The position numbers and the translations under genes are program-made. Below, in pieces: positions 2,406 to 26,979 of a stretch of DNA of 64,000 nucleotides (the stretch's first letter is position 1; every line of letters starts with the position of its first letter). This stretch comes from Alphaproteobacteria bacterium (GTDB taxonomy: Bacteria; Pseudomonadota; Alphaproteobacteria; SHVP01), in assembly GCA_016869765.1 (NCBI GenBank), contig VGES01000002.1, positions 59,964 to 123,963 of the forward strand. The letters run 5' to 3'. The notes under the pieces are model-generated. The model was not told where the DNA came from, made no database searches, and saw only the letters and a list, made by a program, of their open reading frames with translations.

Positions 2406-3700
2406 TAGGCGACGCCGGCCGCAGCAGACCCGAGGAGCGTGGCCGGCATGCCGATGCGAAAGCGCAACAGAGCGAGAGACGCGGCCACGCACAACGACAA
2501 CGCCACCAGATCGACCGTGGCAATTGCCGGCCAATCGAAGCGCAAGCCGACGGGTGCTTCGATCGTGCGGACGACCCCGAAAACCGTGTGGAGGGCAAAC
2601 CACAGACTCAAATTGAGGATCACGCCGACGACGGCGGCGCTGATGGCGCCGAGCGCGCCATCGAGCCGCGGCCGCCCCCGCAACAGTTCGACGTAGGGGG
2701 CACCGACAAAGATCCAGAGGAAACTGGGTGCGAATGTGACGTAGATCGTGAGGACCGCGCCGAAGATGCCGGCGAGCCAGGGATCGACACCGGTGGCGCC
2801 GCGGAAGGCCGCGAGAAATCCGACGAATTGGTTGACGAGGATGAGCGGCCCAGGGGTGGTCTCCGCCAACGCCAGTCCATCGATCATTTCGCGCGGCGTC
2901 AGCCAGCCATAAACGTCGACGGCCTGTTGCGCGACATAAGAGAGAACCGCGTAGGCGCCCCCGAACGTCACCACCGCCATCACGGAGAAGAACCGCGCGA
3001 TGGCGCTGAACACGTGATCGACGCCGAGCACCGCCGTGATCGCCGCCACGGGGACCAACCACATCGCCAGCCAAAGCGTCGCGGTCTTGATCGTGTGAGG
3101 AACGTCGACCCTGATCGCGGGCGGCGGGATGCTCGTGCCAACGCCGAGAAGACCCGGGCGAAGCCGCGCCAGACCATAGCCAACGGCCCCGGCAGAAACC
3201 ACAATCCAAGGAAAGGGCACTTGGAAGAAATAGATCGCAGCGAAGCCAGCCGCGGCGATCGCGTAGTGCGTCGATGACTTGAGCGCGCGTCGCGCGATCC
3301 GCCATAGCGCCTCGGCGACCAAGGCCAGCACCGCCGCTTTGAGGCCGAAGAACGCGGCCTGCACCACCGGGACTTGGGCGTATCCCGCATAGAGGACGCT
3401 CAGCGCCAACACGACCAACGCACCCGGCAACACGAACAGGATGCCGGCCACGAGGCCGCCGCGTGTTCCGTGCAGCATCCAGCCGACGTAGGTCGCGAGT
3501 TGTTGCGCTTCCGGGCCCGGCAACAGCATGCAGAAATTGAGCGCATGCAAATACCGGGGCTCGTCGATCCACTTCTTCTCGTCGACGACCAGGCGATGCA
3601 TCAACGCGATCTGCCCGGCCGGACCACCGAAGCCCAGGCACCCGACCTTAAGCCACAGGCGCCAGGCTTCGGCGAACGGAACCGCGGATCGCTCGTTCAC
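2390..3700 (-). CDS. chrA: Chromate ion transporter ChrA (CHR family, two-domain)
   Basis: 436 aa with WLKVGCLGFGGPAGQIALMHRLVVDEKKWIDE and an internal duplication typical of long ChrA. Polytopic membrane protein. Confidence 0.85.
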   Translation of the reverse strand: MNERSAVPFAEAWRLWLKVGCLGFGGPAGQIALMHRLVVDEKKWIDEPRYLHALNFCMLLPGPEAQQLATYVGWMLHGTRGGLVAGILFVLPGALVVLALSVLYAGYAQVPVVQAAFFGLKAAVLALVAEALWRIARRALKSSTHYAIAAAGFAAIYFFQVPFPWIVVSAGAVGYGLARLRPGLLGVGTSIPPPAIRVDVPHTIKTATLWLAMWLVPVAAITAVLGVDHVFSAIARFFSVMAVVTFGGAYAVLSYVAQQAVDVYGWLTPREMIDGLALAETTPGPLILVNQFVGFLAAFRGATGVDPWLAGIFGAVLTIYVTFAPSFLWIFVGAPYVELLRGRPRLDGALGAISAAVVGVILNLSLWFALHTVFGVVRTIEAPVGLRFDWPAIATVDLVALSLCVAASLALLRFRIGMPATLLGSAAAGVAYYLVA

Positions 3701-4170: not shown

Positions 4171-4390
4171 GGATTTCTCCCTCTCGGTCCCGCCGAAACA
4201 GCCCATGCCGGACGCGCCGTGCCGAGCCGCCCCGTGCGGGGTGGTTCAGGCAGCGCTTGGACGGATCGCCGTCTTGGGAAGACCGGGCGGCTGCCGCCAG
4301 CCCGATCGGGGGTACGTTAGCACTCTGCATCGAGCCGCGAAAGGCCCGTCGCCGCGCGGCGCACCGGTGACTCGGCTACACTCGCCGCCC

Positions 4391-10783: not shown

Positions 10784-11620
10784 TTGACGACCGTCACGCT
10801 TCGCGATGGTTCCGTGGTCTGGTACCGGCGTCTCGGTCAGGGGCCGGCGATCCTGCAGATCCACGGCTCGGCTTTCGGCCACCGCAACTTCGAGAAGCTC
10901 ACCCCCGAGATGCAGCATGGCTGCGAGGTCATCGACTTCGACCTACCGGGGTTCGGCGACAGCCGACCGGGGAAAACCCCGTTTCGCAGCATGGAGGATC
11001 TCGCTGCCCTCGTGGCCGAGGTGATCCGAGCCCTCGGGCTCGAACGTGTCCATGTCCACGGGACGTCCTATGGCGCAATGATCGGCCTGGCGCTCGCCGC
11101 CCGTCACCCGGAGGTTGTCGATCATCTCGTGCTGAGTTGCTTCATCGCGCGCTGGGACCGGGCCGCTGCGATGATGCGGGCGACCTGGAAGCGGGCCGCA
11201 AAGGATAGCGGCATGTCGGCCGTCGCCGATCTCACCGCTGTGGTGGGCTTCGCGCGCAGTTACTTCGAGCGACCCGAGGCTCAGGCGCAACTCGAGTCGA
11301 TGCGCGAGGCCTTCAGCCGAACTGCGCCCGCGGCGTTCATCGCGAGCGTCGAGGCGGCCGAGCGGGCCGACCTCACGCCGTTTGCGCGCCAGATCCAGGC
11401 GCCGACGCTCATTCTGGCGGGAGAAAACGACGCCATGACTCCGCTACACGCGGCGGCCAGCGGTGTCGGACTCGCCGAAGCCGCCAAGTTGATCCCGGGT
11501 TGCAAAGAGGTCCACGTCGTCAAAGACAGCGGCCACTACCTCGTAATCGAGCAGCCCGCGGCCGTCGCGAGAAAGATCCGGGCGTTTCTCGGAGTCGCCG
11601 ATCCGGGGAATCGGGCCTGA
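10784..11620 (+). CDS. Alpha/beta hydrolase fold protein
   Basis: HGSAFGHRNF...VHGTSYGAMIGLALAARHPEVVDHLVL (GxSxG nucleophile elbow)...DSGHY. A TTG start at 10784 is preceded by a GAGGAGG ribosome-binding site. An ATG further upstream would overlap the TauD gene. Confidence 0.75.
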   Translation: MTTVTLRDGSVVWYRRLGQGPAILQIHGSAFGHRNFEKLTPEMQHGCEVIDFDLPGFGDSRPGKTPFRSMEDLAALVAEVIRALGLERVHVHGTSYGAMIGLALAARHPEVVDHLVLSCFIARWDRAAAMMRATWKRAAKDSGMSAVADLTAVVGFARSYFERPEAQAQLESMREAFSRTAPAAFIASVEAAERADLTPFARQIQAPTLILAGENDAMTPLHAAASGVGLAEAAKLIPGCKEVHVVKDSGHYLVIEQPAAVARKIRAFLGVADPGNRA

Positions 11621-11651
11621 TCCGCCCATAGCTCCTCACGGCAGTCGCTGT

Positions 11652-11736
11652 GAGGAGCTGGCGAAACGGTAGACGCAGCGCATTGCCAGTGCGTGGGGGC
11701 ACCTGTCCCGTAAGGGTTCGAATCCCTTGCTCCTCA
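11652..11736 (+). tRNA. tRNA-like gene with type II (long variable arm) Leu/Tyr-like scaffold but anticodon GCC (Gly); possible noncanonical or pseudo tRNA
   Basis: Manual cloverleaf fold. Acceptor GAGGAGC/GCTCCTC with discriminator A73. 3-bp D stem GCG/CGC with loop AAACGGTAGA (Leu-like). Anticodon stem GCGCA/TGCGT with loop TTGCCAG. 17-nt variable arm. T arm AAGGG-TTCGAAT-CCCTT. No encoded CCA. Not run through tRNAscan. Confidence 0.35.
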
Positions 11737-11873
11737 CACCTCCACGTTCTAGCCTTCGTCGAGGTTCCTCCGAGGGGCGCGACTGGCCGTATCGGGACGA
11801 TTGCCCGCCGCCGCGCCCACTGGCACCACCGATCCCAAGAGCGCCGGCCAAGGCCGAGGAATCGCCCGCGCTC

Positions 11874-13274
11874 CTATTTTGCGACCAGCTTGGCCGCGTT
11901 CTCTCCCGCCAAACGCCCGAGATTGGTCGCCATGAACAAGCCTGACCCCGACAGATAGCCCCAATCGGACGGCCCGGAGAGACCACGAGCAGCACCGCCT
12001 CCGGCGAACAAATTTGGGAACGGCTTGCCGTCCATCTTGAGAACCCGGGCTTCGGTGTTCACTTCGAGGCCGCCCTGCGTGTGAAACAGCGCCCCCATGA
12101 TCTTGGCCATGTAGTAGGGCGCCTTGAGCGCGGGTTTGGTCGAGAAGTCACGGCCGAAGGAGTCCTTTTTCTTCTTATTGGCGACGTCGGCCACGTCGCC
12201 GAGGGTGGCGCCGAGCGTCGCGGCGTCGCAGCCGATCACCCTGGCCATTTCGGCCACCGAATCGTAGCGCTTGATTGCTCCGGCTTTGAGCGCCTCCTGG
12301 TGGCTGTGCATCTGGATCGCAACGTCCTGGCAACGCGCGTCCCAGATCGTCCACGCCACATGTTCGGGCTGACGCACGACATTGAGCGCCTGTTCCGAAT
12401 ATCCGGCGTTTTCGTTCGAGAAGCGCTTGCCGTATTTGTTGACCTGAAATCCGCCTTCGGTGATCGACGGCCAGCCCAGATGAATCGCATGCGGCGTGCA
12501 AACCGCGCCGTGACCCTGGAACGATCCCATGTCCTTGATCGAGGCGCCGAGGTCCTCGCCCCATTTCACGGCGTCGCCTTGGTTGCCGACATGACCGTGG
12601 TAATGCGCGTTGACGATCTCTGGAATGTACTTGGCGAGCATCGCCTTGTTACCGCCGTAGCCGTTGCAGGCGAGCACCAAGGCCTTGCAGCCGATGTCTT
12701 CCGCCTTGCCGTCGGGACGCGTGACCCGCACGCCATGAATGCGCTTGGCCGAATCAGCATAGAGATCGGTGACGTACGCCGACGTGGCGATGGGGATCCC
12801 TTCCTTCTCGACCGCCGCCACGAACACCGTGAGAAGTTCCGCACCGAAGCGCGATGGCGAGGCGTGCATGTGCGGCTTGGAATGGCCGGGATAACGAAAA
12901 TCCAGAATGCACGACAACGGCAGCTGGTAGCGATCGACGAGCCAGTCCACGGTCTTTGCCGATTCCTTGGCGAGAAATCGTGCGAGATCCTGGTCGCATT
13001 CTCCGTGCGCCTTGTTGATGAGGTCCTTGGCCAAGATCTCCGGCGTGTCGTCGAGCAGCCCCGCGGCACGCTGCAGCTTGGTTCCGGCGGCGGGAATCTG
13101 GCCGCCCGACAGCGAGGTGTTGCCACGCGGCTTGGCGTCACGTTCCAGGATCAGCACGTCCGCGCCCGCTTCATTGGCGGCGAGCGCCGCCGTGCAGCCG
13201 CAGGCTCCGGCTCCGATGATCAGCAGGTCGGCGCTGGTGTCGAACGATTTTCCCTCGGCCTTCAGAATCGGCAT
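11874..13274 (-). CDS. FAD-binding flavoprotein of the fumarate reductase/succinate dehydrogenase flavoprotein-like family (TcuA-like/3-ketosteroid dehydrogenase-like)
   Basis: DLLIIGAGACGCTAALAANEAGADVLILER (FAD Rossmann)...C-terminal GLFAGGGAARGLSG... Size ~467 aa. Track start 13289 is the alternative. Confidence 0.75.
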   Translation of the reverse strand: MPILKAEGKSFDTSADLLIIGAGACGCTAALAANEAGADVLILERDAKPRGNTSLSGGQIPAAGTKLQRAAGLLDDTPEILAKDLINKAHGECDQDLARFLAKESAKTVDWLVDRYQLPLSCILDFRYPGHSKPHMHASPSRFGAELLTVFVAAVEKEGIPIATSAYVTDLYADSAKRIHGVRVTRPDGKAEDIGCKALVLACNGYGGNKAMLAKYIPEIVNAHYHGHVGNQGDAVKWGEDLGASIKDMGSFQGHGAVCTPHAIHLGWPSITEGGFQVNKYGKRFSNENAGYSEQALNVVRQPEHVAWTIWDARCQDVAIQMHSHQEALKAGAIKRYDSVAEMARVIGCDAATLGATLGDVADVANKKKKDSFGRDFSTKPALKAPYYMAKIMGALFHTQGGLEVNTEARVLKMDGKPFPNLFAGGGAARGLSGPSDWGYLSGSGLFMATNLGRLAGENAAKLVAK

Positions 13275-26892: not shown

Positions 26893-26979
26893 TGGTGCGG
26901 GTGGAGGGAATCGAACCCCCACTCCCCGAAGGGAACGAGATTTTGAGTCTCGCGCGTCTACCAGTTCCGCCACACCCGC
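26893..26979 (-). tRNA. tRNA-Leu (anticodon CAA), CCA encoded
   Basis: Reverse complement reads GCGGGTG-TG-GCGGAACTGGTAGACGC-G-CGAGA-CTCAAAA-TCTCG-(14-nt variable arm)-GGGGGTTCGATTCCCTC-CACCCGC-A-CCA. Canonical type II Leu cloverleaf. Confidence 0.85.

Follow-up and report, generated by a model that had tools for sequence, protein, structure and literature searches.

A tRNA gene with a leucine-type body, a glycine anticodon and self-antisense flanks in an alphaproteobacterial genome

The locus and the tRNA gene

The window analysed here is a 64,000-nucleotide (nt) stretch of an alphaproteobacterial genome (GenBank assembly GCA_016869765.1, contig VGES01000002.1), and its subject of interest is a transfer RNA (tRNA) gene in which a leucine-type body carries a glycine anticodon, called here the hybrid tRNA; together with the conserved sequences flanking it, it forms what is referred to below as the element. 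The gene lies in the gap between an alpha/beta-hydrolase gene (Pfam Abhydrolase_1, 8e-27; gene call P0241, 278 aa, 100% identical) and a convergent minus-strand gene coding for a FAD-binding oxidoreductase (flavoprotein), just as the original prediction had described, and the wider surroundings comprise ordinary metabolic genes. The hydrolase stop codon is situated 31 nt 5' of the tRNA on the same strand; because of this proximity and the shared direction, the hydrolase gene is the probable source of transcription of the element. No sigma-70-like promoter was revealed by a promoter scan of positions 11300-12000. Five independent assemblies from different samples contain the 259-nt intergenic element in identical form, which excludes an assembly artefact. 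An exact-protein look-up gave no exact match on record for the flavoprotein, and a blastn search in distant mode found no match in a plasmid collection. The features of the element are collected in Table 1.

Table 1. Coordinates of the element and of the gene upstream of it, in window positions
Feature	Position	Strand	Basis
Upstream alpha/beta-hydrolase gene (context)	10784..11620	+	Pfam match
Leader hairpin (11630-11642 / 11647-11659); second arm holds tRNA nt 1-8 (5' acceptor strand)	11630..11659	+	inverted-repeat search
Hybrid tRNA: type II Leu-like body, 7/5 acceptor/T stems, no encoded CCA	11652..11736	+	ARAGORN, Rfam, covariation
Anticodon GCC in loop UUGCCAG (11683-11689)	11685..11687	+	ARAGORN, Rfam; homologue L127 has GUC there
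3' trailer CCUCCACGU, complementary to tRNA nt 40-48 (11691-11699: 3' anticodon stem and 5' variable arm)	11739..11747	+	covariation, RNAalifold
Degenerate inverted partial copy of tRNA nt 33-59	11793..11825	+	inverted repeats 11684-11698/11811-11825 and 11697-11710/11793-11806
Terminal GC-rich hairpin (11839-11848 / 11864-11873), then CUAUUUU; likely 3' end of the unit	11839..11880	+	inverted-repeat search

ARAGORN recognises an 86-nt tRNA-Gly(gcc) at 11652-11737, and the Rfam tRNA model RF00005, run on a 400-nt slice, matches 11652-11736 over its full length (model positions 1-71) with 50.3 bits (gathering threshold 29, E 5e-10). The type II tRNA-like gene with a Gly (GCC) anticodon that had been proposed from a manual fold is thus called as a tRNA by ARAGORN and, above threshold, by the Rfam model, both among the checks suggested at the time. 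No transfer-messenger RNA (tmRNA) is called by ARAGORN, and RF00005 alone among the Rfam models passes its threshold (mascRNA reaches 17.7 bits vs 42.5 needed). It is worth mentioning that an Rfam scan of the whole 64-kb window at the gathering threshold missed the hybrid tRNA in spite of the 50.3 bits obtained in the slice, owing to the speed filters of the search, which means that unusual tRNAs may get lost in such scans.

The proposed fold holds in nearly every detail: a 7-bp acceptor stem (GAGGAGC, 11652-11658, with GCTCCTC, 11729-11735) followed by A73 at 11736, a 3-bp D stem closing the loop AAACGGTAGA, the anticodon loop TTGCCAG, a 17-nt variable region with a 5-bp stem, and a canonical T arm (AAGGG-UUCGAAU-CCCUU). 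The anticodon stem, described earlier as a perfect 5-bp helix, is indeed fully paired, with five standard pairs, but one of them, G27-U43, is a wobble pair, so it is not Watson-Crick throughout. Two extra pairs (GT/AC; GU/AC in RNA) can lengthen the acceptor to the 9-mer GCTCCTCAC noted in the original prediction, both copies of which were located, at 11631-11639 and 11729-11737. The window also encodes a genuine tRNA-Leu(CAA) at 26893-26979 on the minus strand (59.3 bits, CCA encoded). The D arm of the hybrid tRNA, UGGCG-AAACGGUAGA-CGC, is nearly identical to that of tRNA-Leu(CAA), with a loop shorter by 1 nt; the two tRNAs as a whole are 58% identical, so the hybrid tRNA is no recent local duplicate.

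The identity elements were compared with the published rules for E. coli (PMC9976931). Leucyl-tRNA synthetase (LeuRS) relies on A73, A14, the A15-U48 pair, G18G19, A20a, U54-A58, U55, C56 and the pairs linking the D loop to the T loop, and makes no use of the anticodon or the variable arm (PMC9976931). The hybrid tRNA possesses A73, A14, the A15-U48 Levitt pair with U48 directly before the T stem (..CCCGU-AAGGG), G18G19, U20-A20a, UAGA in the D loop, and the T loop UUCGAAU. The bacterial glycyl-tRNA synthetase (GlyRS) set consists of U73, G1-C72, C2-G71, C35 and C36, the anticodon bases being strong glycine determinants (PMC9976931), and is represented only partly, by G1-C72, C35 and C36, with A73 in place of U73 and A2-U71 in place of C2-G71. 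The gene conforms to neither of the two tRNA species it resembles: tRNA-Leu has the anticodon NAG or YAA, with A35, whereas here it is GCC with C35 (GCC or GUC in the relatives described below), and class I tRNA-Gly has a variable loop of 4-5 nt, which is replaced here by the 17-nt variable arm.

The glycine-type bases and the anticodon loop of the tRNA-Gly(GCC) type would allow the gene to be regarded as a harmless extra glycine tRNA, charged with glycine by GlyRS and causing no mistranslation. We consider this improbable, given A73, a second acceptor pair that is A2-U71 here and G2-C71 in the relatives, the type II body, and the loss of C35 in one family member (L127). Moreover, a nematode analogue with a Gly anticodon is charged only with leucine (PMC3333845), and a plain glycine tRNA would leave the antisense flanks of the gene without a reason.

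Conservation of the cloverleaf and its antisense flanks

The hybrid tRNA belongs to a small alphaproteobacterial family comprising the window copy, L004, L007/L012 (L012 being identical to L007), L127 and L132. True homology to the window tRNA, at 75-77% identity and extending to the flanks, is shown by L004, from Rhizomicrobium, and by L007. The other two were found by gene context: L127 carries the anticodon GUC (Asp), and the serine-hydrolase gene upstream of it is 89% identical to that of L007, while L132 has the loop UUGCCGA. Conservation and covariation in related genomes, to which the original prediction had pointed as a check, were assessed on four family members: all 97 of the 97 cells available for the 25 cloverleaf pairs hold standard pairs (43-60% in slid controls), and five pairs are compensatory (acceptor stem, two; anticodon stem, one; variable arm, two). 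Judged from this comparison, the cloverleaf is kept under selection.

The conserved unit is about 250 nt long and extends well beyond the tRNA; the homology between the window and the Rhizomicrobium copies runs for about 135 nt past its 3' end and finishes in a GC-rich hairpin. Three segments of the unit are complementary to the tRNA itself. The first, in the leader, forms a hairpin with the 5' acceptor strand. Its 13-nt arms are 92% complementary in an inverted-repeat search, it is present in the minimum free energy (MFE) structure of every precursor fold, and in the window it stands out from shuffled leaders (z -3.5, equalled by 3 of 300 shuffles). The pairing of an upstream 9-mer with the 5' acceptor strand, as originally claimed, is real and longer than had been stated. 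The suggestion that this hairpin resembles a terminator finds no support, as no U-run follows it and a terminator scan was empty.

The second segment, the 3' trailer, forms a helix with tRNA nt 40-48 that is paired in 35 of 35 cells, with 2 compensatory pairs, while slid controls reach 36-57% and 42 of 500 shuffles attain the observed value. One of the compensations, G-C to C-G at position 44 in L007, concerns a nucleotide that is unpaired in the cloverleaf and is thus explained by the trailer helix alone.

The third segment is the degenerate inverted copy located further downstream. Within it, CACUGGCA (11818-11825) is complementary to U33-G40, and a codon-like GGC (11822-11824) stands opposite the anticodon. 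The duplex of this copy with the tRNA gives z -3.6 in the window (0 of 300 shuffles), -4.7 in L004, -3.8 in L132 and -2.4 in L012; in L127, where the extension ends with the contig, z is -0.9. The same test on two genuine tRNA-Leu controls gave +0.5 (for tRNA-Leu(CAA) of the window) and -1.6. The core pairs of the helix between the anticodon loop and the downstream block, at positions 33-37, are formed in 25 of 25 cells in the five members (24-46% in slid controls), and four pairs have changed on both sides. Position 35 is C-G in four members and U-A in the GUC variant L127, position 37 is A-U in four members and G-C in L132, and position 38 is A-U in three members and G-C in the window. The codon-like triplet thus tracks the anticodon, GGC accompanying GCC and GAC accompanying GUC. 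The covariation score of this helix, 0.311 vs 0.206 for shuffled alignments, was reached in 6 of 500 shuffles, and as it derives from five alphaproteobacterial sequences, three of them close relatives, the shuffle counts for the flanks are suggestive, not decisive.

The leader, trailer and inverted-copy helices are nested and mutually compatible, and the MFE folds of the precursors obtained with ViennaRNA use all three. The RNAalifold consensus of the whole unit likewise chooses the leader and trailer helices together with the T arm, over the acceptor, anticodon and variable stems. The mutually exclusive hairpin and cloverleaf conformations proposed originally thus find support, and the competition is wider than envisaged, since the trailer and the distal inverted copy also mask the tRNA. 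The unit is closed by the terminal hairpin, which was not flagged by a simple terminator scan; its region overlaps the stop codon of the convergent flavoprotein gene, and equivalent hairpins close the homologous units. The 3' extension gave no Rfam match.

In L132 (1640-1890) the 3' extension module, comprising the spacer hairpin, the anti-anticodon block and the terminal hairpin, is present twice in tandem, with the second block, GGGUGGCACCACCGA, resembling that of the window. Three other functions considered for the region downstream of the tRNA were rejected. A small conserved open reading frame in the 3' extension is contradicted by frame shifts and by a stop codon in L127. An attenuator, in which the trailer would pair alternately with a downstream GGCGUGGAG copy in the Rhizomicrobium clade, fails, since the 2:3 pairing is broken in L012 and nothing equivalent exists in the window. 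Finally, the downstream block is not the 3' end of a second tRNA (it is GCACCA-like), there being no T arm upstream of it.

Distribution of the element and its architecture in other lineages

When 185,579 species genomes were scanned once with a pattern combining a D arm of the Leu type, the GCC loop, a long variable region and a T loop, 11 loci were obtained, and ARAGORN called tRNA-Gly(gcc) at each of them. Their hosts are four Gemmatimonadota, one acidobacterium, three Alphaproteobacteria, a Chitinophagaceae metagenome-assembled genome (MAG), Butyribacter and an unclassified MAG, and none of the loci is syntenic with the window. The closest relatives of the genes flanking the window copy are found in alphaproteobacterial MAGs. 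On metagenome contigs, an anticodon-free pattern of the alphaproteobacterial family matched L012 only, which means either a rare family or too strict a pattern. In L002, L013, L014, L016 and L017, a family from Butyribacter and prophages, the D arm is of the Leu type and both a GCC loop and a T arm are present, but the acceptor barely pairs; this family is possibly a truncated tRNA-like element or a remnant of an attachment (att) site.

The tRNA element is missing in the syntenic relatives of the window (L018-L022) and in the relatives sharing the Rhizomicrobium context (L120-L126, L128-L131). In the latter, the space between the hydrolase and the P450 genes is either a gap of 54-88 bp or, in L128, is occupied by a HigB-like toxin-antitoxin pair. 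This pair (2677-3269 of L128), a HigB-like toxin gene with a small partner, follows the serine-hydrolase gene and fills the slot that holds the tRNA element in L004, L012, L127 and L132. This pattern of presence and absence makes the element an accessory insert, about 250-330 nt in length, that occupies variable slots. Neither an integrase gene nor a target-site duplication or terminal repeats could be recognised among the window genes or on comparison of filled and empty sites. The element is best explained as an accessory tRNA gene with a hybrid identity and a patchy distribution. What lies between the FAD-oxidoreductase and the short-chain dehydrogenase/reductase (SDR) genes varies among close relatives: L019 has nothing in this slot, L018 an acetyltransferase gene and TauD, and the window TauD, the hydrolase gene and the tRNA element. 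TATATG is conserved upstream of the Rhizomicrobium copies of the tRNA, as a promoter candidate only. A palindrome, CTGACAATTTGTCAG, resembling a repressor operator, is located just before the P450 start codon in L004, L012, L120, L125, L129 and L132, that is, at filled and empty sites alike.

Such variable slots, the absence from the closest syntenic relatives of both contexts, the toxin-antitoxin pair found in the same place and the 9-bp direct repeat flanking most of the tRNA could also point to a decaying tRNA-Leu pseudogene or to integration debris, with the repeats being leftovers of att-site duplication. We regard such an origin as very unlikely. All the cloverleaf pairs are intact, five of them being compensated, the Rfam scores are high, and body and flanks covary. 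Integration into a tRNA gene puts the repeat at the far end of the island, but here it is found upstream of the tRNA, and neither an integrase gene nor a target duplication was seen in the comparisons just mentioned. Covariation and the occurrence of the same architecture in other phyla thus disfavour the degenerating pseudo-tRNA and the integration-site remnant that the original prediction had listed among its options.

The four Gemmatimonadota loci share the self-antisense arrangement: most of the tRNA recurs in their 3' extension as a degenerate inverted copy, and an intrinsic terminator comes after it. Duplexes of the anticodon arm with the extension have energies of -26 to -34 kcal/mol (z -5.7 to -6.5), whereas in about 60 control long-arm tRNAs, including genuine tRNA-Leu and viral tRNAs with other anticodons, z never fell below -2.8. 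With the 5' 49 nt of the Gemmatimonadota tRNAs, the duplexes extend over 37-41 bp (-56 to -61 kcal/mol) and include 3-9 G-U pairs. On the opposite strand each G-U pair would turn into an A-C mismatch; it is therefore the tRNA-sense transcript for which the complementarity is tuned. Moreover, the anticodon stems of L003 and L010 differ, and their antisense blocks differ to match. An antisense extension is also present in L006 (Acidobacteria, z -3.2) and in L015, a 75-kb viral contig (z -4.0), where it masks nt 36-50; it is thus common to the window, L004, L012, L132, L003, L010, L008, L009, L006 and L015, and was not found in L001, L002, L005 and L011. The Rfam tRNA scores range from 44 to 55 bits across three lineages. 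These loci are provisionally grouped as Leu-type long-arm tRNAs with a non-Leu anticodon and a same-strand 3' extension significantly antisense to their own anticodon and variable region, followed by a hairpin.

A near-complete inverted copy of a tRNA gene, as in the Gemmatimonadota extension, and a patchy, mobile-looking distribution might also be expected of a palindrome acting at the DNA level (a foldback, a cruciform or a recombination site) whose arms are matched by gene conversion. The 3-9 G-U pairs per duplex, being A-C mismatches on the other strand, speak against it, and so do the matches in the window family, which at 5-15 nt, degenerate and 80-110 nt apart, make a poor substrate for gene conversion; besides, the inverted copy is no tRNA on the opposite strand. 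There is accordingly little to recommend this explanation.

Two members of the provisional group have peculiarities of their own. The Gemmatimonadota locus L009 (4095-4184, minus strand) has an apparent 8-bp acceptor with a bulged U, G73 and an encoded CCA, while the other members have A73. L015 (IMGVR_UViG_3300047476_001538) contains a long-arm 84-nt tRNA with the anticodon GUU (Asn) and G73-CCA at 2755-2838 and, 100 nt further on, a Leu-type tRNA(GCC) with A73-CCA at 2939-3027, so that this viral contig encodes two mismatched long-arm tRNAs side by side.

Viral contigs supplied about 60 well-folded long-arm tRNAs of the Leu type with a middle anticodon base other than A, GCC accounting for 5 of the 60. 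The viral loci L023-L119 present the anticodons UUG (Gln, one family of 11), UGG (Pro, several with A73), GUG, GUU, GUC, UUA and CUA. A special preference for GCC among mismatched Leu-type tRNAs is therefore unsupported in viral contigs, given the many other anticodons, and the variety marks mismatched Leu-type tRNAs as a diffuse, rare class. None of the viral Leu-type tRNAs with those other anticodons has an antisense 3' extension, which in this sample is confined to the GCC/GUC group. One viral Leu-type family (acceptor AGTCAGG...CCTGACT; L034, L041, L054, L073, L084, L091 and others) has 20-40 extra nt after the anticodon region, which could be introns or insertions.

A possible locked missense tRNA and its relation to known systems

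The reading that we favour, tentatively, is that the element encodes a Gly-to-Leu missense tRNA that is kept locked by its structure and set free conditionally. It would be made as part of a transcript about 250 nt long, for which read-through from the hydrolase gene is the probable origin in this genome; in this transcript the leader would mask the 5' acceptor strand, the trailer nt 40-48, and the distal inverted copy nt 33-59 including the anticodon, so that the primary transcript is predicted to be locked in a non-cloverleaf fold. Removal of the flanks by RNase P and by 3' endo- and exonucleases, possibly with RNase III acting on the duplex, would let the cloverleaf form, and CCA would then be added to the freed tRNA. 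As LeuRS does not read the anticodon, the hybrid tRNA would be charged with leucine and would read GGC and GGU as Leu. We infer transcription, the locked fold in vivo, processing, leucylation and decoding from the sequence features set out above.

Codon usage offers a reason for a lock. GGC is the commonest Gly codon of the neighbouring genes (4.2% of codons; GGC and GGU together 5.2%) and encodes invariant glycines in them, including those of the Rossmann and G-x-S-x-G motifs. This excludes a reassignment of GGC and shows that the standard code applies here, and at such frequencies unrestrained Gly-to-Leu decoding would hit about 1 codon in 19. Free decoding would therefore be costly, and a lock would make sense. 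Missense allo-tRNAs of soil bacteria, once induced, kill E. coli (PMC5389517), and this lethality gives a further reason for a lock.

Several observations weigh against a locked missense tRNA. The switch to GUC in L127 with a matching change in the block suggests selection on the pairing, not on the codon read. CCA is absent from the hybrid tRNA gene, whereas it is encoded by tRNA-Leu(CAA) of the window. The 3' strand of the acceptor is 1 nt shorter in L004 and L127, and the D loop differs in length within the family (10 vs 12 nt), which may affect recognition by LeuRS. The leader hairpin is present in the relatives but lies within chance there in a shuffle test, the covariation of the flanks has the narrow base given above, and the energy models of ViennaRNA ignore tRNA tertiary structure, modifications and co-transcriptional folding.

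Several of these facts would fit another possibility, to which we assign a somewhat lower, though appreciable, probability: that the RNA never decodes and is a tRNA-shaped regulatory or processing RNA. Its cloverleaf would recruit tRNA enzymes (RNase P or Z, the CCA-adding enzyme, LeuRS or another binder), its flanks would form a bistable switch or a structured 3'-end module of the upstream mRNA, and the anticodon loop would serve as one strand of a long-range helix. The change from GCC to GUC with its compensating block change, and the similar behaviour of positions 37 and 38, imply that pairing is what is conserved; the lack of an encoded CCA, the placement of the element, which in the window and the Rhizomicrobium clade alike directly follows the stop codon of a gene read in the same direction, and the tandem duplication of the 3' module in L132 agree with a regulator as well. 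There is also a precedent in tRNA-like RNAs that are charged and yet unused in translation, the irregular tRNAs and tRNA-Other treated in the allo-tRNA paper (PMC5389517). Nevertheless, the loop retains the features of a decoding loop (7 nt, U33, a purine at 37), mostly as the exact tRNA-Gly(GCC) loop UUGCCAA across lineages, and all the nucleotides engaged in the tertiary interactions of a working tRNA are kept. No downstream gene is shared across the contexts, the window copy facing a convergent gene, so a target in cis is not evident, and no Rfam family, the T-box included, matches the extension.

A more far-reaching version of the locked missense tRNA, which we put forward as speculation that may well be wrong, is an RNA-only 'caged' toxic tRNA, charged with Leu and reading Gly (or Asp) codons, which would be scattered horizontally among soil bacteria and at least one phage, held inactive by its own antisense and released when processing is altered under stress, infection or plasmid loss. 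If true, it would constitute a module of the toxin-antitoxin or abortive-infection type made wholly of RNA. Should the lock gate maturation, it would represent a new control of a dangerous tRNA and offer synthetic biology a natural design for missense or suppressor tRNAs that can be switched; should the RNA never decode, it would be a new class of tRNA-shaped riboregulator.

To our knowledge, natural tRNAs whose anticodon contradicts their charging identity are rare, the cases being Candida tRNA-Ser(CAG), the nematode nev-tRNAs, allo-tRNAs and tRNAProX. Each of these has shifted ideas on the genetic code's rigidity, and the hybrid family adds a bacterial Leu/Gly case occurring in several phyla. 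More unusual is that the hybrid tRNAs sit with their own antisense sequences, which appear to covary with the anticodon loop. Among these cases, nev-tRNAs belong to class II, descend from tRNA-Leu, have a Gly (CCC) or Ile anticodon and are weakly expressed (Hamashima et al. 2012; PMC3333845); they are charged with Leu only and decode a Gly codon as Leu in vitro (PMC3333845). They show the same mismatch as the hybrid tRNA, a Leu body with a Gly anticodon, and so offer the locked missense reading an in vitro precedent for leucylation and for Gly codons read as Leu. They are, however, eukaryotic, nematode-specific nuclear genes with CCC, not GCC, and no antisense flanks have been described for them, whereas the hybrid family is bacterial, spans phyla and is embedded in a self-complementary transcript.

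Allo-tRNAs, which come from Acidobacteria, Clostridia and Proteobacteria, are rare tRNAs with a long variable arm, found in soil bacteria and phages near toxin-antitoxin genes and mobile DNA and toxic when overexpressed; a role as missense suppressors and/or regulatory RNAs has been suggested for them (Mukai et al. 2017; PMC5389517). They share with the hybrid tRNA the long variable arm and a mismatch between anticodon and identity, but have 8/4 or 9/3 acceptor/T stems and mostly serine identity (G73), whereas the hybrid tRNA is 7/5, with A73 and a Leu-type D arm (PMC5389517). Even with the two extra acceptor pairs it would be 9/5, not the 9/3 of an allo-tRNA, and its 7/5 geometry and A73 thus place it outside this group; the sections of the paper covered here make no mention of a self-antisense 3' extension (PMC5389517). 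The tRNAProX/ProRSx pairs of Streptomyces are encoded dual-identity tRNAs serving deliberate mistranslation, with a Pro body, Ala, Asn or Thr anticodons and a dedicated synthetase gene (PMC11415595). The hybrid tRNA is likewise a bacterial tRNA of dual identity, but it is not accompanied by a synthetase gene and its body is of the Leu type.

The masking of an RNA by its own extension finds its closest mechanistic analogy in hok mRNA of type I toxin-antitoxin systems: in the fold-back lock of hok, a potentially toxic RNA stays inert because its 3' segment pairs with a distant 5' segment, and slow 3' processing frees the active fold. Unlike the hybrid tRNA, hok is an mRNA for a toxic peptide and has in Sok a separate antisense RNA; a tRNA would be the cargo here, and no antisense gene acting in trans is known. 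The codon-like U-GGC-A that faces and tracks the anticodon also resembles the specifier of T-box riboswitches, in which the specifier codon tracks the anticodon of the cognate tRNA. In the element, however, the pairing is in cis, comprises 5-17 bp and would unwind the anticodon stem, and neither a Stem I platform nor antiterminator logic is conserved across lineages; the T-box model gave no match at E up to 10 in the window segment 11500-11900 or at E up to 1 in L008 or L132. The open-access literature yielded no description of a bacterial tRNA with a Leu body and a Gly anticodon or of a tRNA co-transcribed with its own antisense copy, and the element is thus apparently a tRNA of mismatched identity with an undescribed self-antisense architecture.

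A second structured RNA of the window, unrelated in position to the element, is a chrB-b RNA motif at 4250-4305 on the minus strand (Rfam RF03086, 56 bits vs a gathering threshold of 36.5); at the corresponding place the syntenic relatives L018 and L019 carry ChrB_C and chromate-transporter genes.

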